Part shown: positions 8,285 through 54,271 of the stretch, piece by piece | Position numbering within the stretch: the first letter of the stretch is position 1 | Layout of the letters: the number at the start of each line of letters is the position of its first letter | Origin: Candidatus Spongiisociaceae bacterium | GTDB lineage: Bacteria; Actinomycetota; Acidimicrobiia; Spongiisociales; Spongiisociaceae | NCBI GenBank assembly: GCA_965202665.1 | Contig: OZ241841.1 | Location: 1,888,001-1,952,000, forward strand | Reading direction: 5' to 3' | Length of the DNA stretch: 64,000 bases | The notes under the pieces: generated by a model | Database searches by the model: none | What the model saw: the letters and a program-made list of their open reading frames with translations, nothing else | What the model was told of the DNA's origin: nothing | Made by a program: the position numbers and the translations under genes

Positions 8285-9346
8285 TTGAGGGAAACCGCCA
8301 CTTTGGGCGAGGCTTTGTCGACCGCCCGGACGGCTGCCGGGTTGACGCAGGAGCAGTTGGCGAAGCAGGCGGAGGTTACGCAGGCGGCTTTGTCGCGTTA
8401 TGAGAATGACCAACGCCAGCCGGATACTGAAACTTTGGAAAGATTGGCGGGGGCGTTGGGGGTGACCGGCGGGTTGTTGGAGCGGGCGGCTCGGGTGAGG
8501 GGCGGGTTGGCTTTGGACGCCCATGCGCGGCGGCGGGCCTCGGCCCCGGTGCGGGCGTGGAAAAGCGCGGAGGCGCGGCTTAACATCTTGCGCATTCAGA
8601 TGCACCGATTGCTGGCCATGATCGACTTGGAAATACCCAACGCGCTCTTGGGGCTGGATCCGCTGGACCACGCGCCGGACGCGGCCGCCCGGCTGACGCG
8701 GGCGCAGTGGGGGATGGCGATGGGGCCGGTGCGGGGGGTAACCGGTTGGATGGAGTCGGCGGGATGCGTTGTTTTGGAATGGGATTTCCGCACTCCCCGC
8801 ATAGACGCCGTATCCCAATGGGTGGACGAGTATCCGGTGGTGATGATCAACTCGCTTCTGCCCACCGACCGCAAGCGGCTCACCCTGGCCCACGAGTTGG
8901 GTCACTTGGTGATTCATGGGGATCCGGTTCATTTGTCTTCCGAAGTGGAACAGGAGGCGATGGATTACGCGGCCGAGTTTCTGATGCCCGCCCATGTGAT
9001 ACGCCCCGACCTGCGCAATCTGTCGCTGGGGAAGATCAGCGATTTGAAACGTTATTGGATGGTTTCCATGGCCGCCCTGGTGGAACGGGCCCATAGCCTG
9101 CGGACCATTACCGACGCTAGACGCATCTCCCTCTACAAGGCGTTGAGCGCCCGGGGGTGGCGCAAGCGGGAACCGCTCAGCGAGCAACTTCCCCCCGAGC
9201 AATCCTCCATCCCCGCCCTGATCGTCCAAGAGTTGTACAAGCTCCGTTACACCGCCGAGGAGATCGCCGACTTCGGCGGGTTCGCCGATGCGGAACGGGC
9301 GGCGCGGGTTCTGCCCCTGCAACGGGGGTTGCGGGTAATCCGGTAA
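8285..9346 (+). CDS. XRE HTH plus ImmA/IrrE-family metallopeptidase fusion
   Basis: N-terminal LTQEQLAKQAEVTQAALSRYEN HTH; RLTLAHELGHL and EQEAMDYAAEFLMP. Confidence 0.9.
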   Translation: MRETATLGEALSTARTAAGLTQEQLAKQAEVTQAALSRYENDQRQPDTETLERLAGALGVTGGLLERAARVRGGLALDAHARRRASAPVRAWKSAEARLNILRIQMHRLLAMIDLEIPNALLGLDPLDHAPDAAARLTRAQWGMAMGPVRGVTGWMESAGCVVLEWDFRTPRIDAVSQWVDEYPVVMINSLLPTDRKRLTLAHELGHLVIHGDPVHLSSEVEQEAMDYAAEFLMPAHVIRPDLRNLSLGKISDLKRYWMVSMAALVERAHSLRTITDARRISLYKALSARGWRKREPLSEQLPPEQSSIPALIVQELYKLRYTAEEIADFGGFADAERAARVLPLQRGLRVIR

Positions 9347-9379
9347 ATCCGGCGCGGCGCCGGTTATGATACGGGGGCT

Positions 9380-10210
9380 ATGTTGCGCAGCCTTCTGTAC
9401 GTCCCCGCCGACCAACCGCAGATGCTGGCCAAAGCCGGCGAGCGGGGGGCCGACCTGGTGTTGATCGATTTGGAGGGTCCGGCGGCGGACAAGCAGGAAG
9501 CCCGCCGTCAGGCGGTGGCCGCCATCATCAAGTTGAAAGGGCAGGGGGCGGCGGTGGGCGTGCGGGTCAACAGCCAGCCCGGCGAGCTGGAGGACGACCT
9601 GTCCGCCTTGGCCACCTTGGAGTATTTGGAGGGGGCGGGGGTGGGGCTGGACATCGCCTGCGTACCCCAAGCCAACCTGGCGGCCATCGAGCATATGGGA
9701 GGGGCCCTGGCGGAGACGGGTTTGGCGGCCCTCATCGAAACCGGCCGGGGGTTGCTGGACGCCCCCATCCTGGCCGCCCATCCGCGGGTGGTCAGGCTGG
9801 CCATCGGGGAAGCCCACTTGACGGCCGATCTGGGAATGTCCGACCCGGAGGAGAACGACTGGTCCCCGGCCCGTTCCCAGTTGGTTTGGGCGTCGGCGGC
9901 GGCGGGCCTCCCCGGGCCGATCGGCCCCGCCTACCCCGACATCGCCGATCTGGAAGGGCTGGCCCGCTCCACCGCCCGGCTGGCCGCCCAGGGTTTTACG
10001 GGCCGGGCCGCCGTTCATCCCTCCCAGGTGCCGGTCATCAACCGGGTTTTCACCCCCACCGCCGACCAACTGGCGGCCGCCCGCCGCTTGGTGGAGGATT
10101 ACGATTCGGCGGCGGAGGACGGCCGGGGGGTGGTCACCGATGAACAGGGGAGAATCGTAAACCTGGCGGTGGTGCGCCGCTGGCGCCGCCTGCTCTCCGG
10201 GTCCGAATAA
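9380..10210 (+). CDS. CitE-like CoA-ester lyase (HpcH/HpaI aldolase/citrate lyase family)
   Basis: RSLLYVPA, IDLE, VRVN, ALIETGRG, AVHPSQVPVINRVFTP. Confidence 0.85.
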   Translation: MLRSLLYVPADQPQMLAKAGERGADLVLIDLEGPAADKQEARRQAVAAIIKLKGQGAAVGVRVNSQPGELEDDLSALATLEYLEGAGVGLDIACVPQANLAAIEHMGGALAETGLAALIETGRGLLDAPILAAHPRVVRLAIGEAHLTADLGMSDPEENDWSPARSQLVWASAAAGLPGPIGPAYPDIADLEGLARSTARLAAQGFTGRAAVHPSQVPVINRVFTPTADQLAAARRLVEDYDSAAEDGRGVVTDEQGRIVNLAVVRRWRRLLSGSE

Positions 10211-10233: not shown

Positions 10234-10992
10234 TCAGGGGGTGCGGCGGCGGAGGCGGACGCGGTAGGTGTAGCGCTGGGGATGGAAGTGGCTGATGGCC
10301 AGTTCGATGGGGATTTGGTCTTCGTCCAGGTAGAGGCGGTCCACATGCAGGACCGGCTGGCCGGGTTCGATGTTGATGTGGCCGGCGATTGCGTCCGGGG
10401 CGGGGGCGGCGGTCAGGCTCATGTCGGCCTGGGCGGCCCGGCGGCCCGCCGCCCGCTCGATGGCGCCGATGACCGTGATTTCGCTGGCCGCCCCTCGTTT
10501 TGCCAACTCCGGCATCTCCGACAGGACGGCGCCGATTTCCATCGGCACGTGGATGGTGGTGACGCAGAACGGAACCCCCTCGTGCAGGCGCCTGATCACC
10601 CCGGTGGACACCAGGTCGGTGTCCTGTTGCAGGCACCGGGCCACCCCGATGTCCACCGTGCGGCGGAAGGGGTACAGCACCTCCATCGTGGTGTCGATGG
10701 ACAAGGCCAGGATTTCCTCCACCGACCCGAAATGGCGCATGTAGCGCCGGTGGTAGGGAGTGGCGAAAGTCCCTTTGCCGGGCACCCGGTACACCAGTCC
10801 CTCCGACACCAGATCCTGGTAGGCGCGGCGCACCGTCTGCCGGCTCACCCGGTATTGGACGGCCAGTTCCGCTTCGGTGGGGAGCCGTTCGCCTTCCGGG
10901 AACTCCCCGGACAGGATGGAGTCGGCCAAGGCCCGGGCCAGCTGGGTGTAGGCGCTGTCCGGTTTGGGGTCGGCGACCGCGGCGGAGGGCAT
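10234..10992 (-). CDS. GntR family regulator, HutC subfamily (UTRA domain)
   Basis: LPTEAELAVQYRVSRQTVRRA..GKGTF winged HTH plus C-terminal UTRA-like domain. Confidence 0.9.
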   Translation of the reverse strand: MPSAAVADPKPDSAYTQLARALADSILSGEFPEGERLPTEAELAVQYRVSRQTVRRAYQDLVSEGLVYRVPGKGTFATPYHRRYMRHFGSVEEILALSIDTTMEVLYPFRRTVDIGVARCLQQDTDLVSTGVIRRLHEGVPFCVTTIHVPMEIGAVLSEMPELAKRGAASEITVIGAIERAAGRRAAQADMSLTAAPAPDAIAGHINIEPGQPVLHVDRLYLDEDQIPIELAISHFHPQRYTYRVRLRRRTP

Positions 10993-10999
10993 TTCCCGC

Positions 11000-11299
11000 T
11001 TACCCCCCGGCCGGTTCCAAAAGTTCCATCAACATCACCGTCCGCTCGGCCAGCAAGGGCCGGATATGTTGCACGCCCAAGCCGTTGAAATGATCGGAGG
11101 CGACATGGGCGTCGAAGGCGGCTTGGTCCTCGTACTGTTCGTAGAGGACGAAGACGGCCGGGTCGTCGTTGGAGCGGTGGGCGTTGAAAGTGACGCACCC
11201 CGGCTCGGCCCGGGTCAACCCGATGTATTCCCGGAGCAACTCCGCCGCTTTTTCTTCGTTGCCCTCCGCCACATGGTAGGTGGCCAGCACGTTGATCAT
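11000..11299 (-). CDS. Putative quinol monooxygenase (ABM domain)
   Basis: TRAEPGC..FVLYEQYEDQAAFDAHVASDHF. Confidence 0.88.
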   Translation of the reverse strand: MINVLATYHVAEGNEEKAAELLREYIGLTRAEPGCVTFNAHRSNDDPAVFVLYEQYEDQAAFDAHVASDHFNGLGVQHIRPLLAERTVMLMELLEPAGG

Positions 11300-11339
11300 C
11301 GTTATTCCTTTCCGTTGGTTGGTTCCGGTTCTGCCCGGT

Positions 11340-11747
11340 TCACATTCCGGCGAAGCCGATTTCCCGCAGTTGGCGGCGGGCTTCGTCGGACACTTCGTCC
11401 GGCGTCCACGGCGGTTCGAACACCCATTCCACCGCGATGTCGTCCAGCACCCCGCCCCCCACCAGGGCGGTGCGCATCTGATCTTCGAACACCCGGTTGA
11501 GCGGGCAGAACCGGTTGGTCAAAGTCATCTGCAACTCCGCCCGCCGCCCCCGCACCCGGATGCCGCGGATGAAACCCAGGTCCACGATGTTGATTCCCAG
11601 GTCGGGGTCGATCACCACCCGCAACGACTCCCGGATCCGTTCCGCGGTCTCCGCCGCCCGCGGGTCGTCCGCGGCGGGGGGCGGGGACTCCTCCGGCGGG
11701 CGGGCGGCGCCGATCGCAACCGGCTGGGCGGGGAGGGGCGGTTTCAC
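11340..11747 (-). CDS. Metal-sulfur cluster assembly factor (DUF59/SufT/PaaD-like)
   Basis: VIDPDLGINIVDLGFI, MTLTNRFCPL, VFEPPWTPD; GTG start overlaps the upstream TGA. Confidence 0.88.
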   Translation of the reverse strand: MKPPLPAQPVAIGAARPPEESPPPAADDPRAAETAERIRESLRVVIDPDLGINIVDLGFIRGIRVRGRRAELQMTLTNRFCPLNRVFEDQMRTALVGGGVLDDIAVEWVFEPPWTPDEVSDEARRQLREIGFAGM

Positions 11748-12187
11748 AGCGGGTTCCCTTTTGACGCAACCCGTCCGTTGCCCGCCGGGCTGGAAAGAAA
11801 GGCGTCGGCGGCGGGGGGCGGGGCGGCGACCGTAAAATCTATGGCGACGCCGGTGGTGCGGGTGGTGATCCAGTCGGCTATCCTGTGCGCCATCCGCCGC
11901 AGGCGGGTGATGACTTCCCCGTCCCCCACTTCCCAACCGGCCACCGTCAGATGATGGGGGCCGATCCCCAGCCGCCGGGCTTCGGCCAACCCCTGCTCGA
12001 ACACCCGGGCCAGCTGGGCGCAGGCCGTCCCCGGCCGGAACTTCACCGCCCGGTAGGCTTCGGCGGCGGTCATGCCGACCAGGCGGGCCAGGATGCGCCG
12101 GGCCTTCTCCTGCTCCACCCGCACGTTGTCTTTGCGGGCGGTCACCGTCTCCGGCAACGGAAACTCGGGCCGGGCGGGGGAGGTCAC
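11744..12187 (-). CDS. Divergent ribosomal protein uL22-like protein (147 aa)
   Basis: TARKDNVRVEQEKARRILARLVGMTAAEAYRAVKFRP..LTVAGWEVGDGEVITRLRRMAHRIADWITTRTTGVAI aligns by eye with the uL22 pattern; GTGA overlaps on both sides. Confidence 0.7.
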   Translation of the reverse strand: MTSPARPEFPLPETVTARKDNVRVEQEKARRILARLVGMTAAEAYRAVKFRPGTACAQLARVFEQGLAEARRLGIGPHHLTVAGWEVGDGEVITRLRRMAHRIADWITTRTTGVAIDFTVAAPPPAADAFLSSPAGNGRVASKGNPL

Positions 12188-13422
12188 GCCCCCGCCCCCG
12201 CCAGGGCCGCCCGGCGCAGATCCAGGTCGGCGTCCTCCACCATCTCCCGGGTGACCGGCGCCCCGGCCGCCATCAGCTTGCGGGCGGCCAGAATGTCCCG
12301 GGGCCGGTCCACGGTCAGGGCGGCCCGGATGCGCCCCTCCTGCAACTGGAAGGCGGTGAACCGGCGTTCCTCCAGCGACCCCCGGATGAGGTACGGGGCC
12401 TGCGGGTCGAACAGGCCCTGCGACTGGATGGTGTGGTTGTACTGGTCCGACCAGAACCAGTGCGGGATGGGCTCCGGGTTGTCCAAGCCCAGCATTCCCC
12501 GGGCGGCGGCCGCTCCCTGGCGGGCGGCAGTGTCGTGATGCTCCACCCTCCGGTATTCCCCGGTTTCCGGCTGGTATTGGGCGGCGACGTCCCCGGCCGC
12601 AAAAATGTTGCGGACGACGGTGCGGCAGTCCCCGTCCACTTGGATCCCCCCGGCGGCGGGAATGGGGGAGCCGGCTGCCGCCTCCGTGTTGGGAATCATC
12701 CCGGCCGCCGCCACCAGCAGGCCGCATTCCACCGTTCCCCGGTCGGTTTCCACCAGCAGGCCGTCCGATGTTTCGGCCAGGCCGGTGACCCGCTCCCGCA
12801 GGCGCAGTTCCACACCCCGTTCCCGGTGGATGTCGGACACCACCCGCCCCAAACGGGGGCCGAGCGGGATCCGCAGGCAGGAGTCCAGCATTTCGATGAT
12901 GGTCGCCTCCCTCCCCAAAGCGCGGGCGGAGGCGGCTGTTTCGCATCCGATGAAACCGCCGCCCAGCACCGCCATCCGCCCCCCGCCCAAAGCGGCCAGC
13001 CGCTCCCGCAGGGCGGCGGAGTCCTCCAAGGTGCGCAGGTAAAACACCCGTTCCCCTTCCAAACCGGGGAGGCGGCGGGCCCGGCCCCCGGTAGCGATGA
13101 GCAGGGCGTCGTAGGACAGCCGCCCCCCGTCCTCCAAGACCGTTTGGCTAGCCGCGGCGTCAACGGAGGCGGCCCGGGTTTCCAACAGCAACTCCACCTC
13201 GTTTTCCCCGTACCAGGCGGCGGGCCGCAACCGGCAGTCGGGGGCCCGCCCGGGGGCGGTCAGGGCTTCTTTGGACAGGGGAGGCCGCTCATAGGGCGGC
13301 TCCGACTCGTCGGAAACCAAAATGATCCGCCCCTCGTACCCTTCGCTCCGCAAGGCGGAGGCGGCCGAGACGGAAGCTATTCCGCCCCCCAGCAATATTA
13401 TGGTTTGGGGGAAGCCGGGCAC
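12184..13422 (-). CDS. Ferredoxin reductase (glutathione-reductase-type FAD/NADH oxidoreductase)
   Basis: GGGIA, PYERPPLSK, ATG, GGGFIGCE, FAAGD, WFWSDQY. Confidence 0.92.
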   Translation of the reverse strand: MPGFPQTIILLGGGIASVSAASALRSEGYEGRIILVSDESEPPYERPPLSKEALTAPGRAPDCRLRPAAWYGENEVELLLETRAASVDAAASQTVLEDGGRLSYDALLIATGGRARRLPGLEGERVFYLRTLEDSAALRERLAALGGGRMAVLGGGFIGCETAASARALGREATIIEMLDSCLRIPLGPRLGRVVSDIHRERGVELRLRERVTGLAETSDGLLVETDRGTVECGLLVAAAGMIPNTEAAAGSPIPAAGGIQVDGDCRTVVRNIFAAGDVAAQYQPETGEYRRVEHHDTAARQGAAAARGMLGLDNPEPIPHWFWSDQYNHTIQSQGLFDPQAPYLIRGSLEERRFTAFQLQEGRIRAALTVDRPRDILAARKLMAAGAPVTREMVEDADLDLRRAALAGAGA

Positions 13423-13423
13423 C

Positions 13424-13750
13424 TCAGCCGGGCGGGGCCACGCAGATGGCGCCCTCCTCCACCCGGCAGGGAACCGGGCTCAGGGAGCTGTCGGCCGGGT
13501 TAATGCCCTCCCCGCTCAGGGCGTTGAACTCCCACATATGGTTGACGCAGGTCAGGACGTCGCCCTCCAAGTCGCCGTCCGACAGGGGCCATTCCTGATG
13601 CGGGCAACGGTCCTTGTAGGCCCGCACCTCCCCGTCCACGTTGACCAGCACCACTTTGACCGGGCCCGCCTCCACGCCCACCATGTCGCCCTCCCACAGG
13701 TCGTCCAGGTCGTAAACCTTCCGCCACGGCCCCCCGCCGTCGCCGGTCAT
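13424..13750 (-). CDS. Rieske [2Fe-2S] ferredoxin (TmoC-like)
   Basis: CPHQ..LTCVNHMWEF..GEGINP. Confidence 0.92.
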   Translation of the reverse strand: MTGDGGGPWRKVYDLDDLWEGDMVGVEAGPVKVVLVNVDGEVRAYKDRCPHQEWPLSDGDLEGDVLTCVNHMWEFNALSGEGINPADSSLSPVPCRVEEGAICVAPPG

Positions 13751-13764
13751 CGCCGTCCGCCCGG

Positions 13765-14802
13765 TCAGTTGGAGGCGGTTGCCGGTTCGCCCAAACCGGC
13801 CGCTTCCAAGCCGGCGTTGCGGGCGGCGGCCGCCTCGGCGGCCACCCCCTCCGGGCTGATCCCGCCCGCCGGGGCCCCGGCCAACAGCCCTCCCAGGGCC
13901 AAAGCGGCCGCGTCGGCCCGCGGGGCCCATTTGCCTATCCACCGGCGGTAGGCGTCGGCGTTGTCCGGCCGTTGCTCCACCGTCAGGCGGGCCAGGGCGC
14001 CGCACCAGCGGGCCCGGCGTTCCACGTCTTCATGCAGGTTTTCGCACAGGAGCCAGGTCAGGTCGTCGCCGTTGGCCCGGGCCGCCTCCCCCAAAGCGCG
14101 GATCAGCACATCGTCCAAAGTTGGGGCGATCACCAGGTTGGCGGCGGTGAACGACTCCCCCCAGTCGTAGGCGATCAGGGCCAGTTCCAAGGCTTCCCGG
14201 GCCGGTTGCCATGCGGGATGGTTTTCCCAAATATCCCGTTCCCCGACGGCGAAGCCTTTCTCCGGGAAGGCGATCTGCAACTCGCGGGTTCGGTAGGAGA
14301 CGTTGGTCACCCGCCGCAACTGGTCGGCGGCGGACAGGGCGGCCGCGTTGCTGATGTACGCGGAATGCCCCAGATGGCAGATGTAGGCCTGCAGCATCTG
14401 CAGGGCGTGGGCCGGGAACCGGGTAGGGGTGAAAACGGTGCGCAAAATTTCCCGCCATCCCCCGGACAGGTTTTGGTCGTGGTTGACGCCGGCGTAGGAG
14501 TCGAACAGCCCGGCCATGGCTTTCTCCCGGGCCGACTGTTGCGCCACGTAAGCCCGGTAGGTGAGCTGGTCGGGATCCCGGAAGTCCTCCCAGTCGTCGA
14601 TCTGCACCGGGGAGTTGTCCCGGTAGGCCAGAAACCACAGGTTGCCCGGCGAGGACGGGTTCTGCTCCAAAGCCGCCTTGCGATCCTTGCGGATGGTGTA
14701 GTTGGCGGCGTGGGCGCCGATCTCGTACTCGGTGGGGCGGCGCCGGGTTTCTCCGAACTCGCTCCAAGTGCGGAGTTTGCGGGGTTGCGGTTGGTCGGTC
14801 AT
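13765..14802 (-). CDS. Soluble di-iron monooxygenase hydroxylase beta subunit (TmoE-like)
   Basis: LRTWS..RRRPTEYE, DWEDFRDPDQLTYRAY, WQPAREALE..YDWGESF. Confidence 0.92.
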   Translation of the reverse strand: MTDQPQPRKLRTWSEFGETRRRPTEYEIGAHAANYTIRKDRKAALEQNPSSPGNLWFLAYRDNSPVQIDDWEDFRDPDQLTYRAYVAQQSAREKAMAGLFDSYAGVNHDQNLSGGWREILRTVFTPTRFPAHALQMLQAYICHLGHSAYISNAAALSAADQLRRVTNVSYRTRELQIAFPEKGFAVGERDIWENHPAWQPAREALELALIAYDWGESFTAANLVIAPTLDDVLIRALGEAARANGDDLTWLLCENLHEDVERRARWCGALARLTVEQRPDNADAYRRWIGKWAPRADAAALALGGLLAGAPAGGISPEGVAAEAAAARNAGLEAAGLGEPATASN

Positions 14803-14834
14803 AAGGCCTGCCTTTCTCCCGGATTCCCCCGGGC

Positions 14835-15137
14835 TCAGCCGCTTTCGGTGGCTCCGCCCAGCGACCAGGTGATCTGCTCGGCGCTGGAAGTGTCGATTCG
14901 CCCCGCGTTGGCGGACAGGTGGTTTTCCAGCGAAGGCAACTCGAATTCGGGTCCCAGGTGCCGCCGCAGGGAAGCGACGGTCACTTTCATGAATGAGGGG
15001 GCCTGGATGCGGACGTAGGCCCCCCGGTCGATCACCTCGATGTCCACGCCCGGGTTGTCGTCTTCGATGGCGCTCACCACCCGCTCCACCGGGGCGCCCA
15101 TGCGCAGAATCGGGCCAACGGGGTTTTCCATCGCCAT
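14835..15137 (-). CDS. Monooxygenase effector protein (MmoB/DmpM, TmoD-like)
   Basis: VGPILRMG, IEDDNPG, DRGAYVRI, LGPEFEL..AGRI. Confidence 0.9.
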   Translation of the reverse strand: MAMENPVGPILRMGAPVERVVSAIEDDNPGVDIEVIDRGAYVRIQAPSFMKVTVASLRRHLGPEFELPSLENHLSANAGRIDTSSAEQITWSLGGATESG

Positions 15138-15142
15138 CCTCC

Positions 15143-15451
15143 TCAGTCTTCGTCCGCGTAGTCCACCCGCACATGGTCCAGGGGGGCGATCCCCGCCTCG
15201 GCCACGGTCAGGTCGTCGTCCAGCAACCGGTTGTTGTGGTACACCACTTTGCGGGCGTCGCGGGCCCGCACCCGGGAGGTGGCGTGATGCTCCACCGCCC
15301 CCGCCAACTCGGCGATGGTCTGGTTGGACATCACCGGGATCAGCAACTCCACGAAGTCATCGTGGAAGATGGCGTTCAACGGAACCAGTTGCGGCTCCGG
15401 GGCGTCCCCGGGCTCCGGGGCCGCTTCCGGGGCGGCGCCGTTGTCGCTCAT
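15143..15451 (-). CDS. Monooxygenase gamma subunit (TmoB-like)
   Basis: PLNAIFHDDFVELLIPV..TIAELA..TVAEAGIAPLDHVRV; ATGA overlap with the alpha-subunit stop. Confidence 0.85.
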   Translation of the reverse strand: MSDNGAAPEAAPEPGDAPEPQLVPLNAIFHDDFVELLIPVMSNQTIAELAGAVEHHATSRVRARDARKVVYHNNRLLDDDLTVAEAGIAPLDHVRVDYADED

Positions 15452-16956
15452 ACCGCCGCCCCCGCCATCGCCGGTTCGGCCATCGGATAGGTTTTGGTCC
15501 ATTCGTAGCCGCCGGCGTCGTCCCCGAAGACATCGGGGGTGAGGCCCATGTAGCCCAAAATTCCCGGTACGTCCATCGGCTGGATCTCCCCGGCCAGGAA
15601 CCGTTCCACCACCGTCTTGTTGTTGAGGGCGTCCCGGTCCTCCCACCAAATCTGCCGGCATCCTTTGGTGCAGAAATGGTAGGTCACCCCGTTGTGCTTG
15701 AGCGAGAAGTTGCGCACCCGCCATTTGCCGTCCCTCCCGTAGGTGGCGTTGCAGGTGGGGAGCATGCAGTAGTTGCACAGCCAGGGCAGGGTTTCGGGCA
15801 GGGCCCGCTCCATTTTGCCGTTGTTGACGTTTTCGGCGATCACCCGCCACTTGTCGCCGTAGAGGGTGTCCCAGTTGGGATACTTTTCCATCAGCCACTC
15901 GCGGGATTCGGCGTCCACCCCCACCGGTTTCCACCACAAAGTGGGCCGCCAGAACCATTCGCCCATCTGCAGGGAATGGTGCCACACGTCCAGTCCCTCC
16001 ATGAACTCATCCCAGTACCAGGGTTTTTTCAGCCCGTAGTCCTGAATGGTGCGCACGAACTGGTCGATGATCCACTCTTCCATGAACTCCCGGTAGCTCT
16101 GCTTGCGGTGCTCCACCGGGGTGTTGTAGTCCATGGAGGGGCCGGTCAGGGCGGAGAAAGCGCGGGCGGACAGCCAGAAGAACTTGTCCACCGTCCACTG
16201 CGCCCGCACCGGGTCGTGCTCCACCAGGATCTCCAGAGTGGGCCCGCCCTGCTGGGAGTGGCGGGCCTCGTCGGTCTGGATGGAGGAGATCATGTTGGCG
16301 AAGTTGACGTCCCCCACCTCCAAGGCGTCGGCCGCCAACGCCACGAACTGGATGTTGGTGAAGCCGGTTTCGAAGGTGAACGGGAGCTGGATGGCGATGT
16401 CCACCACGCTGCCCCCGATCATCATGTTGTCGATCAGGGCCCGCAGGGCGATGCTCACCCAGTCGTTGGTGAGCAGGGCCCGGTGCGCCCAGTCGAACTG
16501 CGGATCGTCGGCCACCATTTCGTGTCCCACCGACAGGCTGAGCTGCCCGTGCCGGATTTCATCCAAGATGCCCATGACGGCCATGTTGCGCCAGGCGGGG
16601 CTGAGGCCGAAGCGGGCCATGCGGCTTTCCCCGTACACGGCCGCGTATTCCACCAAGGCGATGCCCCCCAGGTGCATTTTCACCGAGGACTTCCACGCTT
16701 CGGACAGGCCGTCGAACTGGTTGGAGCGCCGCAGGGCGTTTTTCACCGCGTAGGCGGACACCTCTTTTTCGTTCTGGGTGGCCACGTATTCGGGGTAGGC
16801 GACCTTGTAGCTCTCCTCCCACTTGGACCAAGCCTCGCGGGGGACTTTGCCGCTGCCGCTCAGCCAGTCCGGGTAGACGGCCTCATCGTCCACGTAGCGC
16901 AACGTCCAGTCGACATCACGGACGATGCCCTGCCATTCGTCTCGTTTCAACGTCAC
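15448..16956 (-). CDS. Soluble di-iron monooxygenase hydroxylase alpha subunit (TmoA/TouA/IsoA group)
   Basis: Iron ligands EYAA, DEIRH, FETGFTN, DEARH; C-terminal YHS-like YHFCTKGC. Confidence 0.95.
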   Translation of the reverse strand: MTLKRDEWQGIVRDVDWTLRYVDDEAVYPDWLSGSGKVPREAWSKWEESYKVAYPEYVATQNEKEVSAYAVKNALRRSNQFDGLSEAWKSSVKMHLGGIALVEYAAVYGESRMARFGLSPAWRNMAVMGILDEIRHGQLSLSVGHEMVADDPQFDWAHRALLTNDWVSIALRALIDNMMIGGSVVDIAIQLPFTFETGFTNIQFVALAADALEVGDVNFANMISSIQTDEARHSQQGGPTLEILVEHDPVRAQWTVDKFFWLSARAFSALTGPSMDYNTPVEHRKQSYREFMEEWIIDQFVRTIQDYGLKKPWYWDEFMEGLDVWHHSLQMGEWFWRPTLWWKPVGVDAESREWLMEKYPNWDTLYGDKWRVIAENVNNGKMERALPETLPWLCNYCMLPTCNATYGRDGKWRVRNFSLKHNGVTYHFCTKGCRQIWWEDRDALNNKTVVERFLAGEIQPMDVPGILGYMGLTPDVFGDDAGGYEWTKTYPMAEPAMAGAAV

Positions 16957-16969
16957 AGTCGGACTCCTT

Positions 16970-17434
16970 TCAGTCGACTTCCATATGGCCCAGTTGACGA
17001 TAGATCCCGGCGTTGTCCCAGTAGGCGGTGATGCTTTCGATCTTGTCGTCCCCGTTCACATCGAAGATGAAAACGTGCGGCTCCCAGTATTTGCAACCGG
17101 TGGGCGCGATCGGCCCCCAGGCTTTCTCCTGGGTGCCCCCCACGCTGACCACCGCCGCCACCTGTCCTTCTTCGGAGGCGGTGATGGAATGCACTTCGTT
17201 GGACAGGTCGGGGAAAGAGTTGATCAGCCCCTCCCACATCGGCCGGCCCAAAGTGGCTACTTTGCCGTCCCCCCGGATCACCCGCTGCTTGCCCCAGATC
17301 TCCACCGGGACGTAGGAGAAGTCGGCGGTGTCGGTGCACAACTCCACCATCCCGAGGGTGTCGTGGCTGCGGTAGGCGTCGAAGAAGTCCTCCACCACTC
17401 CCGCCGCTCCGGTTCTTTCCATGGTTGCGGTCAT
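16970..17434 (-). CDS. NTF2/SnoaL-like protein
   Basis: VVEDFFDAYRSHD, SFPDLSNEVHSI, FDVNGDDKIESITAYWD. Confidence 0.82.
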   Translation of the reverse strand: MTATMERTGAAGVVEDFFDAYRSHDTLGMVELCTDTADFSYVPVEIWGKQRVIRGDGKVATLGRPMWEGLINSFPDLSNEVHSITASEEGQVAAVVSVGGTQEKAWGPIAPTGCKYWEPHVFIFDVNGDDKIESITAYWDNAGIYRQLGHMEVD

Positions 17435-17481
17435 CGTCTTTCGCCTTTCCCTCGCCTTACGTACTTTCCGATATCGGGTTT

Positions 17482-17901
17482 TCAAACTATGGATACGCTG
17501 TCCAGCCGTTTTACGGCCAGCCGCCGATAGAGGATGTTCTGATCCCAGAACCCTTTGATGGAGGTGATGCGGCCGTCGCCGGTGCCCAGCAGCCACGCCT
17601 GGTCCAAGTCCAAGTGTTTCTCCTGGTTGACCACCCCCAAATAGTCGGCGGCCTGCGTGCCTTCCATTTTCAGCTGGGTGACCACCGTGCCGTCGGAGCC
17701 CGTGAAACTGGATTTCTCGGTGAGGAGCAGGTCGGGGAAGGCAGTCGTCGTTTCGTCGAAGAAGGCCCGGGCTTCCGCCTTGCCCCCGCTCACCCCCGCC
17801 GGGGCTATGTCCGCAACGGCCCCCTCGTCTACTTCGGCGAAGGCCCGCTCCACATCGCGGTCGCGGATGGCGTTCCAGAATCTTGCGACTGTCTCCGACA
17901 A
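17482..17901 (-). CDS. SnoaL-like ester cyclase family protein
   Basis: FWNAIRDRD, AFPDL, MEGTQ, DGRITSIKGFWD; GGAGG RBS. Confidence 0.82.
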   Translation of the reverse strand: MSETVARFWNAIRDRDVERAFAEVDEGAVADIAPAGVSGGKAEARAFFDETTTAFPDLLLTEKSSFTGSDGTVVTQLKMEGTQAADYLGVVNQEKHLDLDQAWLLGTGDGRITSIKGFWDQNILYRRLAVKRLDSVSIV

Positions 17902-17943
17902 CTTGTCAACCTCCTCCCGGGTCGGGAACCCTCCAATTTCTCC

Positions 17944-18963
17944 TCAGAGAGCCTCCATGTACTTAAGCACCGCGTCGGCCACCGCGTCCGCCGAACCCGG
18001 ATTTTGGGCGGTGATCAGGTTGCGGTCCACCACCACGTGCGAAGCCCAGGCGGCCCGCCCGTCGTCGAACACCGCCCCGTTGTTGCGCAGGGTGCTCTCC
18101 AAGTACCAGGGCATTCCCTGTTTGCCGGGGCGGGTCTGATCCTCCTCTTCGTCGGTGAAGGAGGTCATCCGGTACCCGTCGAACAGCCACTGGCCTTCGG
18201 TGTTGGCGGGGGCGGACAGCAGAACCGCCGGGCCGTGGCACATTGAGGAAATGGCGGCCTGCTTCTCGTGCAGGATGCCCAGCAACCGGGTCACGTCCGA
18301 GTTGTCGGACAGATCCACCATCGGGCCGTGCCCGCCGGGGACGAACACCGCGTCGAAGGTGGCCATGGTTTCATCGCTCATCTCAGCCAGGTTCGCCGGG
18401 TTGACGAAGTCGGGCAGGGTGTCCAGCAGGTGCTTGATGCGGGAGGCTTCGCTGCGGGCGTCTTCGTTCACCGTCGCCAAATCCGCTTCCATATCGGCCC
18501 GCGTCACCGAGGCGGGAAGGTCCTGGTCCTGCAGGGAGTCCAAGAACTCCCGGTCGTTCCGCCACGTGTCGAGGGCGGCGACGTTGATCAGCTCCCGGGC
18601 TTCCACCGGGGTCATGCCCGCTTCTTTGAGCCGGTTGAAAACCCGCCGGGAGGCGATCATTCCCAGCTCGGTGAGGTGGCGGAGGGTGAGGCGGATGTCG
18701 TCCACATCGTGGGCGAAGGTGCGGGTGATGGTGCCCAGAAAGTCTTCGTCTTCGTCCGGGTAGTGGAAGATTTCCTCCAAGCCGTAGGGGTCGGGGTAGG
18801 GGGAGCGTCCGTCCGGGGTGGCCACCACCACGTCCAACCCGGCTTCCGTGAACCGCTCGTAGGGGGTAATGGCCTCGTCGGCGAAGAAGCCGGTTTCGTA
18901 CATCGTCCCGTTGGACATCTCGATCTCCCGGGCGCTCGACACCAGGAACAACAGTTTCGGCAT
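17944..18963 (-). CDS. DJ-1/PfpI (Hsp31-like) type 1 glutamine amidotransferase-fold protein with an internal insertion
   Basis: TGFFADE, ATPDG, FVPGGHGPMVDL, SMCHGPAVL, ITAQNPGS. Confidence 0.88.
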   Translation of the reverse strand: MPKLLFLVSSAREIEMSNGTMYETGFFADEAITPYERFTEAGLDVVVATPDGRSPYPDPYGLEEIFHYPDEDEDFLGTITRTFAHDVDDIRLTLRHLTELGMIASRRVFNRLKEAGMTPVEARELINVAALDTWRNDREFLDSLQDQDLPASVTRADMEADLATVNEDARSEASRIKHLLDTLPDFVNPANLAEMSDETMATFDAVFVPGGHGPMVDLSDNSDVTRLLGILHEKQAAISSMCHGPAVLLSAPANTEGQWLFDGYRMTSFTDEEEDQTRPGKQGMPWYLESTLRNNGAVFDDGRAAWASHVVVDRNLITAQNPGSADAVADAVLKYMEAL

Positions 18964-19120: not shown

Positions 19121-20017
19121 TCAGCCGCGGATTTGGGCCAGGCGGCGGGCGGCTTGGGTGAAGTAAGCCCCGTACTCCAACGGGGCCAGCCAGCGGCCGG
19201 GGATGCCGTCCACCCCGGCGATTATTCCGAGCAACCCCCCGGCGATGGCCCCGGTGGTGTCGGCGTCGTCGCCCCGGTTGACCAGTTTGACCAGCGTTTC
19301 CTCAAAATCGGGCGGTTGTTGGATGGCCCACACCGCGCACCCCAGGCTGTGGACGACGTAGCCGCCGGTGCGCAGGCCGGTCACCGGCAGGTCGGCGGGC
19401 AGGTCCAGGGTTTCCCGCACCGCCGGGTGCAGGCCCAGGGCGCGGGCGGCGGCGACCGCTTGGGCGGGGGAGGCCCCGTCCAACAGGGCGGCCGCTATTT
19501 CGTTGTAGGCGATGCAACTGTCCACGCATTTGGGATGGGCGTGGGTGACGGCGGAGATCTCGGCCGTTTCCCGTCGGCGCCGTTCCGGGTCGGGGCGGGT
19601 CAAAGCGGTGGGCAGGGCCCGCATCAGCGACCCGTTGCCGCAGGAGTTTTCGGAACGGAGGCCGCTGGCGGTCGGATCTCCATGTTCGGCCAAGTTTTCC
19701 AGGGCGCGGCGGGTGGCGCCCCCGATGTCAGGGGGGCCGGTGTAATACCAAGCCAGGAATTCGTCCGCCACTTTGCTCAGGCGGTATTCGCCGTCCAGAT
19801 AGGCGGCGGTCACCGCTTTGGTGAGAGCGGTGTCGTCGGTGCCCTGCCCCGGTTCCCAGCCGAAGGCCCCTCCGCCCGTCATTTCCCGATGGGTTCCGTG
19901 CCGGAGCTTTATTTCTTCGGCGCTCATGAATTCGACGGTGGATCCCAAGGCATCGCCCGCCGCTGCGCCGAGCAGTCCGCCGGCGATGGCCCGTTCCAGG
20001 GAAGGCCGGTCGCTCAT
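19121..20017 (-). CDS. ADP-ribosylglycohydrolase (DraG/ARH family)
   Basis: GDALG, GTDDT, GNGSLMR, THAHP, GDDADTTGAIAG. Confidence 0.92.
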   Translation of the reverse strand: MSDRPSLERAIAGGLLGAAAGDALGSTVEFMSAEEIKLRHGTHREMTGGGAFGWEPGQGTDDTALTKAVTAAYLDGEYRLSKVADEFLAWYYTGPPDIGGATRRALENLAEHGDPTASGLRSENSCGNGSLMRALPTALTRPDPERRRRETAEISAVTHAHPKCVDSCIAYNEIAAALLDGASPAQAVAAARALGLHPAVRETLDLPADLPVTGLRTGGYVVHSLGCAVWAIQQPPDFEETLVKLVNRGDDADTTGAIAGGLLGIIAGVDGIPGRWLAPLEYGAYFTQAARRLAQIRG

Positions 20018-21096
20018 TCCCCCGGGCCTCCGGGGGGCGGAGATTGGGTTTCCCGGTCCCGGAGCTGGGCTTGGCGGGACTGCTCCAGGATGAGGTGGAA
20101 GATTTCTTCCACTCCGTCCGCGTCCAGCCCGGCCCGTTCCGCCTCTTCCCGGATGATTTCCAGCAGTTCCGTTTCCCGTTCCGGGATCTGCACCGGCATG
20201 TTCCGCTCCGCTTTGATGCGCCCGATGCGCATGGCCTGCTCGTGCCGGTTGGCCAGCAACCGCACCAGGTCGCGGTCGATCAGGTCGATGTTGTTGCGGA
20301 TGCGGTGCACACCCAGGGCGGTCATCAGCCGGGCGAAAGCGGGGGGGTCGATCTGATGGGAGACCCTGGTGCGGGCGGCGGGCGGGTCGGGATGCACTTC
20401 GATCATCACCCCGTCCGCCCCCACGCCCTGGGCGGCCAGGGCCAGCGGCTGGATTTGCCCGGCGGCCCCGCTGGCCGCCGACGGGGCGGCGATCACCGGC
20501 AGATGGCTGGCTTCCCGCAACACCGGAATGGAACTCAGGTCCAGAGTGGTGCGGGTGGAATGCTCGAAGGTGCGGATGCCGGCTTCGCACAGCACCACCT
20601 GATCGTTGTCTTCGGCCAGGATGTATTCGGCCGCCCACAGCCATTCGTCCACCGTGGCCGACCCGCCCCGGGCCAGCAAAACCGGCTTCCCGGTTCGTCC
20701 GATGACCCGCAACAGTTCAAAGTTCTGCATGGCGTCGGGGTCCACGTAGATCATGTCGGCGTATTCGGCCACCATTCCCACATCTTGCGGCTCCAGCACT
20801 TTGGTGAGGGTGGGCAACCCGGTTTCCTCCCCGGCCCGGCGCAGGATTTCCAAGCCCGGTTTGCCCAGCCCGGGAAAGTCGTAGGGGGAGCTGGCCGCCT
20901 CGTAGGCCCCGCCCCGCAACACGGAGGCCCCGGCTTCCGCCACCGCCAAGGCGGCGGTCATCATCTGCTCTTCGGTCTCCACCGCCCGGGGGCCGGCTAT
21001 CACCGGGAACGGGTCGCGGCCGAACCGCACTGGCCCCACCGCCACCACCGTATTCTCGGCGGAGCCGTTTCTGAGTGCTCTGCGTTCCATTTCCAC
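20014..21096 (-). CDS. Type I-beta DAHP-synthase-like domain (degenerate active site) fused to C-terminal AroQ chorismate mutase
   Basis: IAGP, MQNFELL, GIRTFE, EVHPDP scaffold; C-terminal RNNIDLID..R..K..ERE..S..Q. Confidence 0.88.
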   Translation of the reverse strand: MEMERRALRNGSAENTVVAVGPVRFGRDPFPVIAGPRAVETEEQMMTAALAVAEAGASVLRGGAYEAASSPYDFPGLGKPGLEILRRAGEETGLPTLTKVLEPQDVGMVAEYADMIYVDPDAMQNFELLRVIGRTGKPVLLARGGSATVDEWLWAAEYILAEDNDQVVLCEAGIRTFEHSTRTTLDLSSIPVLREASHLPVIAAPSAASGAAGQIQPLALAAQGVGADGVMIEVHPDPPAARTRVSHQIDPPAFARLMTALGVHRIRNNIDLIDRDLVRLLANRHEQAMRIGRIKAERNMPVQIPERETELLEIIREEAERAGLDADGVEEIFHLILEQSRQAQLRDRETQSPPPGGPGE

Positions 21097-49236: not shown

Positions 49237-50532
49237 TCAGCGGCCCGTAGCCTGGCGGATGGCGCCTTCCAGCATGTCGCCGCCCTGGTCGCATTCCTCC
49301 TCGGTCAAAGACAGGGGCGGGGCGATGCGCAGCACGTTGCCGAACACGCCGCCTTTGCCGATCAGCAACCCCCGTTCCCGGGCCTGCTCCATCACCTCCC
49401 CGGCCAGTTCCGGGCGGGGGGCGCCGGTGTCCGGGTCGGCCAATTCCACGCCCAGCATCAAACCTTTGCCCCGCACTTCGAAAATTTCCGGCACCTGGTC
49501 GGACAGGCCGTCCAGCTGGTTTTTGAGGCGGGTTCCCACCTTGTAGGCGTTGGTTTGCAGGTCGTCTTCCACCAGCGCGTCCAAAGTGGCCAGCCCGGCG
49601 GCGGTGGCCATCGGGTTGCCCCCGAAAGTGTTGATGCCCAAAGCCGGGTAGGAGTCGATGAGGTCGCCCCGGCCCACCACGCCCCCGATGGCCATCCCGT
49701 TGCCCAGGCCTTTGGCGAAAGTGAGCAGGTCGGGGGTGACGCCGTGCGCCTGGTAGCCCCAGAAGTTTTCCCCGGTGCGGCCCCATCCGGTTTGCACCTC
49801 GTCGCTGATGAACAGGGCCCCGTGTTCGTCCAGGATTTCTTTGAAGGCTTGGAACAGGCCGTCGGGGGGGGTGACGAACCCGGAAACCCCCTGGATCGGT
49901 TCGGCGATCATCGCCGCCGGATGGCCGGATACGGCCACCCGCAGCATTTCCCGCAGGTCGTCGGCGCACCGGGCGATGAACTGGTCGTCGGGCAGATGGC
50001 CGAAAGGGGAGCGGCGTTTGTAGCCGCCGTGGATGTAGGTGGTTTGGAAGGGGCTGTAGGAGGTGGCCGACCAGGTGGAGGTGCCGGTCACCGCGGCAGC
50101 GCTGTGCGACTTGCCGTGGTAGCTGTGGCGGAGGGCCAGCATCTGGTTGGATTTGCGGTTCTGGCTGGCGATCATCAGGGCGGTGTCGTTGGCTTCGGTG
50201 CCGGAGTTGGTGAAAAACACTTTGGCGTCGGGGATGCCGGACATCTCGCACACCCGCTCCGCCAGCTGGATCTGGTTTTCCATCAGGTAACAGGTGGAGG
50301 TGTGCAACACCCGTTCGGCCTGGGCTTTCACCGCCGCCGTCACCTTCGGATGGCGGTAGCCGAGCATGTTGACCAAGATGCCGCAGAAAAAGTCCAGGTA
50401 GCGGCGGCCTTCGGCGTCGGTCGCCCAGTGGCCTTCCCCATCCACCAGGGCGATGGGTTCCTCGTAGTACAAGGCTACCCAGTCGGGCAACACCCGCCGG
50501 TGCCGTTCCAGCAGTTCAGAATGAATTCCCAA
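49237..50532 (-). CDS. Class III aminotransferase (probable beta-alanine:2-oxoacid aminotransferase)
   Basis: FTNSGTEAN, SYHG, AEPIQG, DEVQTGWGRTG, FAKGLGNG, NTFGGNP; TTG start inferred. Confidence 0.9.
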   Translation of the reverse strand: MGIHSELLERHRRVLPDWVALYYEEPIALVDGEGHWATDAEGRRYLDFFCGILVNMLGYRHPKVTAAVKAQAERVLHTSTCYLMENQIQLAERVCEMSGIPDAKVFFTNSGTEANDTALMIASQNRKSNQMLALRHSYHGKSHSAAAVTGTSTWSATSYSPFQTTYIHGGYKRRSPFGHLPDDQFIARCADDLREMLRVAVSGHPAAMIAEPIQGVSGFVTPPDGLFQAFKEILDEHGALFISDEVQTGWGRTGENFWGYQAHGVTPDLLTFAKGLGNGMAIGGVVGRGDLIDSYPALGINTFGGNPMATAAGLATLDALVEDDLQTNAYKVGTRLKNQLDGLSDQVPEIFEVRGKGLMLGVELADPDTGAPRPELAGEVMEQARERGLLIGKGGVFGNVLRIAPPLSLTEEECDQGGDMLEGAIRQATGR

Positions 50533-50704
50533 GTCTCGCCTCCACGGTCGCGTACGCCCCCAAGAATACCCCACCCGCCAAGGCGCCGCGCCCGCCCCCG
50601 GAAAATTCCCGCCCACGACCGAGTCCCACAGATGTTTGGCTGGCTGGACGCTGAACCGGCTCTTCTCAGAGTCGAGCCCTAGCGCGCTCTGCATCAATGA
50701 GTTG

Positions 50705-51172
50705 CTATTCCTCTTCATCTTTGTCGCGATAGAGGCGTCCGATGATATAAGAACCGGACAAAGCGACAATTTGCACTATGGCTATGACAGCCGCCCAACC
50801 CTCATAGCCCACCAAGGCCATCGTCAGAGCCACGCCCAGCCCGCCGACGCCAAGCATAAAAGCCATCCACTGTCCCCTCGTGGTTGCCTTGGTGCCTGTT
50901 TCCACAACTCTTTGCTCAGTATTCATGCGGTGTCGCGCTTGGGTTATCGATGATTCCAACAGTTCCTGAACGAATCCAGGGGCGAGGGCGTCATATTCTC
51001 TTAGATCCTGCGGGTGTGGAAGCGGAGCCATCCAATGTTCTGCGTAAACCTTCGCTATTCCCCGTTGGTCACCCGGGTCAACCGGATCGACGATTTCAGG
51101 GTTCTGATCTGGATGCTCCCCTGAGGTGGGTTGCGGGACGACGGGAGGGGGCCCGCTAGGTCTTTCGCTCAT
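50705..51172 (-). CDS. DUF2335-like membrane protein
   Basis: APLPHPQDLREYDALAPG..QARHRM..RGQWMAF plus two TM helices. Confidence 0.8.
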   Translation of the reverse strand: MSERPSGPPPVVPQPTSGEHPDQNPEIVDPVDPGDQRGIAKVYAEHWMAPLPHPQDLREYDALAPGFVQELLESSITQARHRMNTEQRVVETGTKATTRGQWMAFMLGVGGLGVALTMALVGYEGWAAVIAIVQIVALSGSYIIGRLYRDKDEEE

Positions 51173-51374
51173 CGGATATGTTGGCTTGGACTAGCTTGCC
51201 GTCGAGGGTCTTGCGGAAATCCCTTCCCAAGGCCTCCCAGTCGGACTTCCAAGCGTTGGCGGTTTCTAAGGCCGACAGGTTGTAATGATCGTAGTGGCCG
51301 AACAGGTCAAAGGTTCTCGCCACCCCGCTCCAAAAGGAGGGTTTGGCCTTGATCAGTTTAGTGCTGAGTCGCAT
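51156..51374 (-). CDS. Small hypothetical protein, copy 1
   Basis: SFWSGVARTFDLFGHY..WKSDWEALGRDFRK; near-identical paralog at 54272-54508. Confidence 0.7.
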   Translation of the reverse strand: MRLSTKLIKAKPSFWSGVARTFDLFGHYDHYNLSALETANAWKSDWEALGRDFRKTLDGKLVQANISDERKT

Positions 51375-51441
51375 GGCATTCCCTACCTTTCACGTCGCTT
51401 GCTCTAATGAGTATAGGCATGCGCTGTGTCTTATGTTGAAT

Positions 51442-51660: not shown

Positions 51661-51704
51661 GGGGGTGCTATCCGCCTCCGGAGACGATGTTGGCCCTGCC
51701 TAGC

Positions 51705-54249: not shown

Positions 54250-54271
54250 GATCCCGCCGGAGGCGATCTGG

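Follow-up and report, generated by a model that had tools for sequence, protein, structure and literature searches.

Group 1 of the SDIMOs (soluble di-iron monooxygenases) holds the TMO-like enzymes. Table S1 of PMC11825192 sets the threshold for the group at an alpha subunit identity to TouA of at least 35%, and section 3.1 of the same paper gives its gene order as alpha-gamma-ferredoxin-coupling-beta-reductase. Passages of that paper (Yang, Kertesz and Coleman 2025) also describe a fluid substrate range, count cyclic-ether oxidisers in the group, report that most group 1 sequences are without a known substrate, and define subgroups A and B, both of them uncharacterised. The 2-hydroxypyridine 5-monooxygenase HpdABCDE is termed atypical in a citing passage. 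Here we describe a 13-gene SDIMO operon from a Candidatus Spongiisociaceae bacterium (Acidimicrobiia). The window, by which we mean the whole stretch of DNA analysed, comprises 64,000 nucleotides (contig OZ241841.1, positions 1,888,001 to 1,952,000), and the genome is a single 2.77 Mb contig that is 94% complete. The operon is real. It stands as a variant within an enzyme family already known, carries a prefix of three genes that is conserved and unexplained, and offers a concrete lead to its function. It encodes a six-component SDIMO, and, judging from sequence, there is roughly an even chance that this enzyme turns a small volatile alkene (C2-C5, or a vinyl derivative) into an epoxide that passes to the coenzyme M (CoM) route of its host. 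A literature search without most subscription journals found no description of this cluster.

The conserved unit and the alpha subunit clade

The operon consists of 13 open reading frames (ORFs) on the minus strand, running from 18963 to 10234 in the window (Table 1). The gaps between them, in transcript order, measure 42, 47, 13, -4, 5, 32, 14, 1, -4, -4, 40, and 7 nt. Every gene had a family match in Pfam and NCBIfam profile scans: DJ-1_PfpI, SnoaL, SnoaL_2, and Phenol_Hydrox from DJ-1 through alpha; TmoB, MmoB_DmpM, Phenol_Hydrox (beta), and Rieske from gamma through the ferredoxin; and Pyr_redox_2 with Reductase_C, Ribosomal_L22 (E 1.7e-11), FeS_assembly_P (DUF59), ABM, and GntR with UTRA in the tail. 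The 13 co-oriented and tightly spaced genes of the initial annotation are therefore present, with gaps of -4 to 47 nt. A TmoB-type gamma subunit, a separate Rieske ferredoxin, an effector, a beta subunit, and a reductase make up the component set of a group 1 SDIMO. Spacing alone suggests that the 13 genes are co-transcribed. A promoter and terminator scan of the operon gave no signal above chance, and its GC content (62-72%) is similar to that of the flanks.

The order of the components departs from the canonical alpha-gamma-ferredoxin-effector-beta-reductase arrangement. The window presents effector-beta-ferredoxin, and the claim of the initial annotation that the ferredoxin is displaced behind beta was borne out in all loci holding the three genes (59/59 genome or plasmid loci and 31/31 metagenome loci, 90/90 together). 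By contrast, the published order was found in all 10 group 1 reference clusters fetched from outside the clade of the window. A further departure had been missed. The reductase is of the glutathione-reductase (GR) type found in Rieske dioxygenases, and not of the 2Fe-2S/FNR type of TmoF.

A GTDB genome scan seeded with alpha, with gene content scored by tblastn, yielded 65 loci. Core genes were alpha (65), gamma (63), effector (63), beta (62), SnoaL-1 (59), SnoaL-2 (59), ferredoxin (58), and DJ-1 (58), while the tail genes were found less often: reductase (24), uL22-like (19), DUF59 (19), ABM (17), and GntR (8). The conserved unit is DJ-1–SnoaL–SnoaL–alpha–gamma–effector–beta–ferredoxin, and the reductase, uL22, DUF59, ABM, and GntR genes are not part of the core. 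A single conserved unit of 13 genes, as first proposed, thus gives way to one of eight. All six loci without SnoaL have an alpha gene truncated at its 5' end, and five of them stop at a contig edge; in L064, the 9 kb upstream of a 5'-truncated alpha hold no DJ-1/SnoaL prefix. A reciprocal metagenome scan used SnoaL-2 as its seed and covered the best 80 of 188 matches, a partly redundant set. Alpha was the next gene in 70/70 loci with at least 300 nt of downstream sequence, starting at most 200 nt from SnoaL-2 in 69 loci and about 220 nt away in L095. SnoaL-1 lay upstream in 73/73 loci and DJ-1 in 62/62. Hosts of the cluster span at least five phyla, including Actinomycetota, Chloroflexota, Dormiibacterota, Myxococcota, and Alpha- and Betaproteobacteria, with soil Actinomycetota and sponge-associated Acidimicrobiia among them.

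Sequence assigns the alpha subunit to group 1. It is 49.8% identical to a TouA-like Marinobacter protein, the stand-in through which it passes the TouA threshold, and 39-50% identical to 10 group 1 references. Among solved structures, TouA and TmoA come nearest to it (E 1e-163 to 1e-154; 1.4e-163 for TouA). The closest alpha, 96% identical, is also from Ca. Spongiisociaceae, which makes a sponge-associated actinobacterium the probable host. The di-iron ligands E103, E133, H136, E196, E230, and H233 are invariant in 56/56 clade alphas. Tree references were 10 group 1 alphas from annotated plasmids, with Tou-like plasmid proteins standing in for TouA and TmoA, and two phenol-hydroxylase outgroups. 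In a tree of 41 rows, drawn from 90 by omitting the long-branch P0105 and P0115 and many near-duplicates, the window alpha and 28 relatives formed a clade with 100/100 support. This clade leaves out the Tou-like, IsoA (ELW1), XamoA (Py2), ThmA (YN2), and Thermomicrobium proteins, and a quick 90-row tree that included the two long branches gave it a support of 91. Forcing the subclade of the window to group with IsoA and XamoA was rejected (approximately unbiased test, p-AU 0.0003), as was forcing it with the Tou-like proteins (p-AU 6e-5). Within the group 1 SDIMOs, these phylogenies support the alpha clade as an uncharacterised subgroup of its own, in line with the distinct subgroup that the initial annotation had proposed. 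The clade has probably been sampled already as 'uncharacterised' and drawn in print without gene context, because a Bradyrhizobium ivorense CI-1B protein is listed among the group 1 rows of the sequence table in PMC11825192 and the sole group 1 alpha detected in that strain belongs to the clade (L025/G079).

Clade members receive a 'toluene monooxygenase' annotation by default, and database names would make the enzyme an ordinary toluene, benzene, or phenol hydroxylase. We consider this very improbable. The TouA and TmoA matches speak for it, as do W166, L191, F195, T200, N201, F204, and I223, which agree with the arene enzymes, but the alpha falls outside the Tou-like clade and Q141 is replaced in nearly all clade members. 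At the position of TouA Q141 the window alpha has S140, and this site is S/T/D/N in 52/56 clade members, whereas it is Q in 8/10 references and D in the remaining two, IsoA and XamoA. Position 103 of the pocket holds V/I in 50/56 clade members, and IsoA and XamoA likewise have V there. Ala takes the place of W266 in 55/56. Furthermore, 146 loci searched for ring-cleavage genes (dmpB/E/G/H-like) gave no match, and the own genome revealed no catechol 2,3- or intradiol dioxygenase in searches whose controls were positive.

Side observations on the cluster include alpha-gamma fusions in several actinobacterial loci (L042:9001-10821), beta-AraC fusions in Paraburkholderia-type loci (L048:11120-13147), and a beta gene split into two frames in the closest relative (L001:11166-12200, G001), which reflects a frameshift or an assembly error. 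In L116 and L131 the cluster is partly duplicated, in tandem or inverted, and Pseudonocardia endophytica (G071) carries three copies.

Coenzyme M genes and the DJ-1/SnoaL prefix

The case for an alkene substrate draws on pocket positions 141 and 103, on the ring-cleavage searches without a match, and on the epoxide pathway of the host. With Py2 proteins as queries for xec and CoM genes, the own genome revealed a Xanthobacter Py2-type CoM epoxide pathway at C1:2,516,459-2,530,754 (L166:10460-20000, L167:1-4755). Identities to Py2 are 76% for XecA, 50% for XecB, 66% for the 2-ketopropyl-CoM carboxylase (2-KPCC), 49-51% for XecD/E-like short-chain dehydrogenases/reductases (SDRs), 54% for ComA, and 44% for XcbC. 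The locus also holds XcbD- and XcbE-like genes (roles assigned after a passage of PMC9457059), a CoA transferase, and an acyl-CoA ligase. Its XecA keeps the Zn ligands H218/C220/C339, and its 2-KPCC keeps R59, C85, C90, H140, R368, F502, and H507. In a PF02332 scan of the genome only the window alpha and beta matched, making this its sole SDIMO. The initial annotation had reported ring-cleavage, glutathione, and CoM genes as missing. This holds beside the operon, where none were found, but not for the genome, in which the full CoM pathway lies about 610 kb away. The self-contained, CoM-independent pathway that it envisaged does not hold at the level of the genome: the CoM epoxide route is there in full, and in other loci xec genes adjoin homologous clusters.

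Four loci besides the own genome place xec genes near the cluster. In L024, an alphaproteobacterial metagenome-assembled genome (MAG), xecA (81%)-xecB-2-KPCC (E 7e-238)-SDR-SDR-CoA transferase is divergent from the cluster. In the near-identical L099 and L105, genes for xecA (75-76%), xecB, SDRs, an aldehyde dehydrogenase (ALDH), and a CoA transferase stand directly before DJ-1, together with a MEDS regulator of the Py2 Xaut_4864 type; such a regulator adjoins the cluster in L146 and L154 too. In G084 (Chloroflexota), a single contig carries xecA and alpha some 15 kb apart. The window-type SDIMO is the only full SDIMO found in G078, G084, and G109. Note also that four hydantoinase/acetone-carboxylase-like genes occupy the interval between the SDIMO cluster and xecA in G084 (L178:2794-12577). 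An adenylosuccinate-lyase-like neighbour (L006/L018/L019) was considered as XcbD and rejected, PcaB-like proteins scoring better, and was not counted as CoM evidence.

The taxonomic distribution adds to these linkages. All 10 SDIMO carriers among 29 family genomes (own plus 28) have XecA and 2-KPCC. The CoM locus is present in 21 of the 29, with a DUF7714 gene and an LLM oxidoreductase recurring in it. A thiol-dependent epoxide pathway, as with Xamo and Iso, is thus present in the own genome, and close XecA (at least 44% identity) was found in 14/50 cluster genomes scanned, which come from 50 of the 65 loci (11/47 outside the sponge family), against 4/350 phylum genomes. Within Pseudonocardiaceae, the corresponding figures are 4/13 genomes with the cluster and 3/238 without (Fisher p 1.4e-4, kin not being independent).

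The predicted electron path leads from NADH through the GR-type reductase and the Rieske ferredoxin into the alpha2beta2gamma2 hydroxylase, with the effector as its partner. If the enzyme is an alkene epoxidase, this hydroxylase would convert the small alkene to an epoxide. The epoxyalkane:CoM transferase (EaCoMT) would open the epoxide, two SDRs would oxidise the R- and S-hydroxyalkyl-CoM, 2-KPCC would yield a beta-keto acid, and the CoA transferase or ligase would then activate it. The SDR pair together with 2-KPCC suggests chiral C3-type epoxides, and the CoA transferase and ligase suggest ethene-type chemistry; Suzuki et al. associate the latter two genes with ethene pathways in a passage of PMC6440738. 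The weakest step falls to the prefix, in which the SnoaL pair and an Hsp31-type Cys-His-Glu enzyme would rearrange or hydrate the epoxide or reactive carbonyl by-products. Such a module would give the CoM-free route needed by most carriers. It may provide this thiol-cofactor-free route because most carriers are without CoM genes and often have ALDH and acyl-CoA synthetase genes as neighbours of the cluster.

Several observations weigh against an alkene epoxidase coupled to CoM. The alpha does not group with IsoA or XamoA, and aromatic substrates were considered plausible by Yang et al. (PMC11825192) for the uncharacterised group 1 subgroups. Operon and CoM locus are far apart in the own genome. 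Eleven of the 29 family genomes have XecA and 2-KPCC without an SDIMO and eight have neither, so that the pathway must be fed otherwise in those 11 relatives and perhaps here too. The CoM loci of two SDIMO-negative family genomes showed no substitute oxygenase, and a search for copper membrane monooxygenases (PF02461) in 61 relatives had no match, its control being likewise silent. Close XecA was not found in 36/50 cluster genomes, many of them incomplete MAGs. In several XecA-positive soil genomes (G070:C21, G081:C116), other SDIMOs lie near xecA-like genes and inflate the co-occurrence of XecA with the cluster. Finally, the DJ-1 gene and SnoaL pair are retained even where xec genes adjoin the cluster, so that their role is not accounted for by epoxide disposal alone.

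DJ-1 finds its best NCBIfam match in HchA, at 100.7 bits and below the 365-bit cut-off, and its predicted fold (pLDDT 93) is of the Hsp31/glyoxalase III type (Foldseek E ~1e-15). A helical insertion of about 120 aa (approximately residues 63-185) carries its own invariant residues. Across 39 sequences E30, C242, and E274 are invariant and H212 and H243 are at least 90% conserved; aligned to 1u9c/4lru, the catalytic set (Glu plus Cys-His-Glu) is present. We take E30, C242, H243, E274, and H212 to be the Hsp31/glyoxalase III catalytic positions, and the glyoxalase activity suggested by the initial annotation would be consistent with these residues. The other activities that it suggested, epoxide hydrolase or cyclase for the SnoaL proteins and quinol oxidase for ABM, are putative. 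SnoaL-1 has a conserved C-terminal YRRLAVKRLD motif, and its invariant residues form a basic C-terminal patch. The SnoaL proteins have putative cyclases as best matches and also match AclR/SnoaL2-type proteins. Profile matches to epoxide hydrolases are weak (limonene epoxide hydrolase, E 0.004, in the N-terminal third; another epoxide hydrolase, E 0.002), and the position of the key catalytic Asp of limonene epoxide hydrolase, ketosteroid isomerase, and SnoaL cyclases would presumably be taken by A137 or G117 here. A complex prediction of SnoaL-1, SnoaL-2, and DJ-1 scored 0.02, which speaks neither for nor against association. A search for DJ-1 in five SDIMO-negative relatives, conducted without a positive control, had no match.

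The obligatory DJ-1 gene, both SnoaL genes, and the kept Hsp31 catalytic residues would all be accounted for by oxidation of furan, methylfuran, or another five-membered heteroarene (perhaps pyrrole, thiophene, or an azole), the CoM genes then being unrelated neighbours on volatile-compound islands. The epoxide would open to a butenedial or butenolide, the SnoaL pair would isomerise it, and the Hsp31-type enzyme, in the manner of a glyoxalase III working on a vinylogous glyoxal, would hydrate the product to succinic semialdehyde or a related oxo-acid. This scheme explains the prefix more neatly than an alkene substrate does. Genes resembling succinic semialdehyde dehydrogenase (SSADH) lie near the cluster in L018, L019, L055, L066, L131, and L138, the two that were scanned having TIGR01780 as best match (555-559 bits, under the 646 cut-off). 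Other ALDHs, acyl-CoA synthetases, and the AraC_N regulator, of a family that senses aldehydes, recur near clusters. The window lacks this regulator, which 22 genome loci carry and which another eight have as a fusion with beta; in many relatives it stands in for GntR. We nevertheless judge heteroarene oxidation unlikely, as SSADH-like neighbours occur in just 6/146 loci and not in the window, the scheme leaves unexplained why xec genes and MEDS regulators of the Py2 type adjoin the cluster in the alphaproteobacterial and Chloroflexota-type loci, and the chemistry is our inference, the literature search having found no supporting paper.

Instead of acting as pathway enzymes, the prefix proteins might serve the hydroxylase as partners in its structure, assembly, or damage repair, the substrate being another compound such as a cyclic or vinyl ether, a sulfide, or an N-heterocycle. 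The SnoaL and DJ-1 genes are conserved with alpha beyond the reductase (59 and 58 against 24 of 65), the basic patch of SnoaL-1 would suit a partner protein, and the cyclic-ether oxidisers and fluid substrate range that PMC11825192 describes in part leave room for other substrates. Set against this, DJ-1 retains a full catalytic set and the literature search found no precedent, and we regard the proposal as improbable.

If alkene epoxidation proves true, the clade would represent an overlooked sink for biogenic alkenes and a new epoxidation catalyst, with possibly new thiol-free epoxide-handling chemistry and with bacterial CoM metabolism in sponge symbionts, of which the literature search found no description. 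The CoM link narrows the candidate substrates to a short list, and cultured carriers exist (Rhodococcus koreensis R85, Pseudonocardia endophytica DSM 44969, Paraburkholderia guartelaensis). A wider scenario is speculative and, on balance, doubtful. It would make the clade a third lineage among the group 1 alkene monooxygenases, spread over several phyla and with its own DJ-1/SnoaL/SnoaL module for epoxides that needs neither glutathione nor CoM, which plugs into CoM carboxylation in sponge Acidimicrobiia acting as unrecognised CO2-fixing sinks of marine alkenes, and in one subclade of which the uL22 paralogue was co-opted as an assembly factor. As context and not as support, passages of PMC12756903 report that isoprene and other volatiles are removed by sponges to differing extents and implicate nitrifiers in the removal of dimethyl sulfide and bromomethanes.

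Tail genes and genomic surroundings

The reductase–uL22–DUF59–ABM tail is subclade-specific, and GntR stands behind it in only 4/65 loci. Reductase type varies within the clade, L024 having an FNR-type enzyme, and a GR-type reductase with ABM is also found behind the canonical-order cluster of Mycobacterium THAF192. Although its fold is that of uL22, the uL22-like protein scores 39.6 bits against the rplV cut-off of 73.65, and a strong uL22 match, the true rplV, lies elsewhere (C1:2040083-2040412). By these measures it is a paralogue and not ribosomal rplV. The uL22-DUF59 pair is seen in the actinobacterial subclade to which the window belongs. DUF59 follows uL22 in 24/25 loci, and the two are fused in R. 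koreensis and in two database proteins; the paralogue also lies at L066:16755-17516, paired with DUF59 or fused to it. A uL22 profile search returned 124 proteins at E <=1e-12; the named ones are labelled L22 or hypothetical, and several come from organisms carrying this cluster. Databases label the paralogue a ribosomal protein. In this one actinobacterial subclade, a likely role of DUF59 and the uL22 paralogue is to assist in the loading or assembly of the metallo-enzyme. The accessory set had been called unusual, which does not hold for DUF59 and ABM, known companions of propane monooxygenase (prm) clusters in the part of PMC4428276 that treats them.

Table 1. Genes of the SDIMO operon in transcript order, with window coordinates and basis of assignment
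Feature	Position	Strand	Basis
DJ-1/PfpI, Hsp31/glyoxalase III-like, 339 aa, core gene	17944..18963	-	profiles, fold, residues; 58/65 genome loci
SnoaL/NTF2-fold protein 1, 139 aa, TTG start with ribosome-binding site, core gene	17482..17901	-	Pfam; 59/65 loci
SnoaL/NTF2-fold protein 2, 154 aa, core gene, immediately 5' of alpha	16970..17434	-	Pfam; 59/65 loci
Group 1 SDIMO hydroxylase alpha, 502 aa	15448..16956	-	Fe ligands, structure matches, tree
Hydroxylase gamma (TmoB), 102 aa	15143..15451	-	Pfam
Effector/coupling protein (MmoB/DmpM), 100 aa	14835..15137	-	Pfam
Hydroxylase beta, 345 aa	13765..14802	-	Pfam
Rieske ferredoxin, 108 aa, behind beta; C49, H51, C68, H71 conserved	13424..13750	-	Pfam, alignment
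GR-type ferredoxin reductase (HcaD/AndAa-like), 412 aa, not core	12184..13422	-	Pfam/NCBIfam; 24/65 loci
uL22 paralogue, 147 aa, with the fold of uL22 and a conserved hairpin motif of its own	11744..12187	-	Pfam, fold; 19/65 loci
DUF59/PaaD-like protein, probable Fe-cofactor assembly, 135 aa, C81 conserved	11340..11747	-	Pfam/NCBIfam; 19/65 loci
ABM-family protein, 99 aa, not core	11000..11299	-	Pfam; 17/65 loci
GntR/HutC regulator, 252 aa, sporadic	10234..10992	-	Pfam; 8/65 loci

Upstream of the operon and on the same strand are an ADP-ribosylglycohydrolase gene, shared in this position with L001 and no other locus, and a fusion of 3-deoxy-D-arabino-heptulosonate 7-phosphate (DAHP) synthase with chorismate mutase (19121-21096). 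An XRE-HTH/IrrE-type metallopeptidase gene and an HpcH/citrate-lyase-family gene (8285-10210) converge on the end of the operon. A large secreted protein with an internally duplicated domain, by eye resembling substrate-binding proteins, is encoded at 22886-25273. Between 34000 and 46000 GC content drops to 42-61% and ORFs score poorly, a stretch that is probably acquired DNA. Short duplicated gene fragments occupy 49237-54523, where 51156-51323 duplicates part of 54272-54523 and 51390-51632 duplicates the start of 49237-50532; an insertion-sequence-like ORF lies among them (51726-52646).

In other loci, a stand-alone AMP-binding C-terminal-domain protein of about 115 aa recurs behind Chloroflexota-type clusters (L028:13899-14243), beside a small helix-turn-helix gene. 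The Mycobacterium sp. THAF192 plasmid (L068:4834-15431) holds a long-branch group 1 SDIMO with canonical order and GR-type reductase, accompanied by an acetylene-hydratase-family gene, ABM, an isochorismatase, and a permease, and represents a separate uncharacterised pathway.

Comparison with known systems

The cluster shares with TouABCDEF and TmoABCDEF the same six component types, identical iron ligands, T200/N201/Q227, and an alpha about 50% identical to the TouA-like reference. It differs in its separate clade, the ferredoxin behind beta, the GR-type reductase, the replacement of Q141 and W266 (the latter by Ala in 55/56), the fixed DJ-1/SnoaL/SnoaL prefix, and the lack of ring-cleavage genes. 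IsoABCDEF, the group 1 isoprene/isobutene alkene epoxidase, has V at position 103 and a residue other than Q at 141, as the clade has, and ELW1 IsoA is 48% identical to the window alpha. Iso clusters nevertheless belong to another clade with another gene order, no isoGHIJ was seen with the clade of the window, and glutathione-synthesis-like genes lie near only two loci (L013, L021). For subgroups A and B, the text seen of Yang et al. (PMC11825192) suggests aromatics and gives no gene context, DJ-1/SnoaL genes, or CoM link.

The prm clusters of Rhodococcus and Mycobacterium likewise have DUF59 ('metal-sulfur cluster biosynthetic enzyme') and ABM behind an SDIMO, but of a different group, and the portion of PMC4428276 describing them mentions no uL22 paralogue, SnoaL, or DJ-1. 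E. coli HchA and Candida Glx3 (Hsp31/glyoxalase III) have the fold and the Glu...Cys-His-Glu residues of the window DJ-1, which is less than 25% identical to them, carries the helical insertion of about 120 aa, and is fixed in a monooxygenase operon.

Xanthobacter Py2, with XamoABCDEF and XecABCDE/XcbA-E, differs in that XamoA (46% identical to the window alpha) belongs to a different clade, in its canonical gene order and FNR-type reductase, and in having no DJ-1/SnoaL annotation in the region fetched; in the window genome, moreover, the SDIMO and CoM loci are unlinked and the CoM locus adds a CoA transferase and a ligase. What the two have in common is a group 1 SDIMO together with EaCoMT, two SDRs, 2-KPCC, and CoM synthesis, and the same MEDS/excisionase type of regulator stands beside the clade loci L099, L105, L146, and L154.

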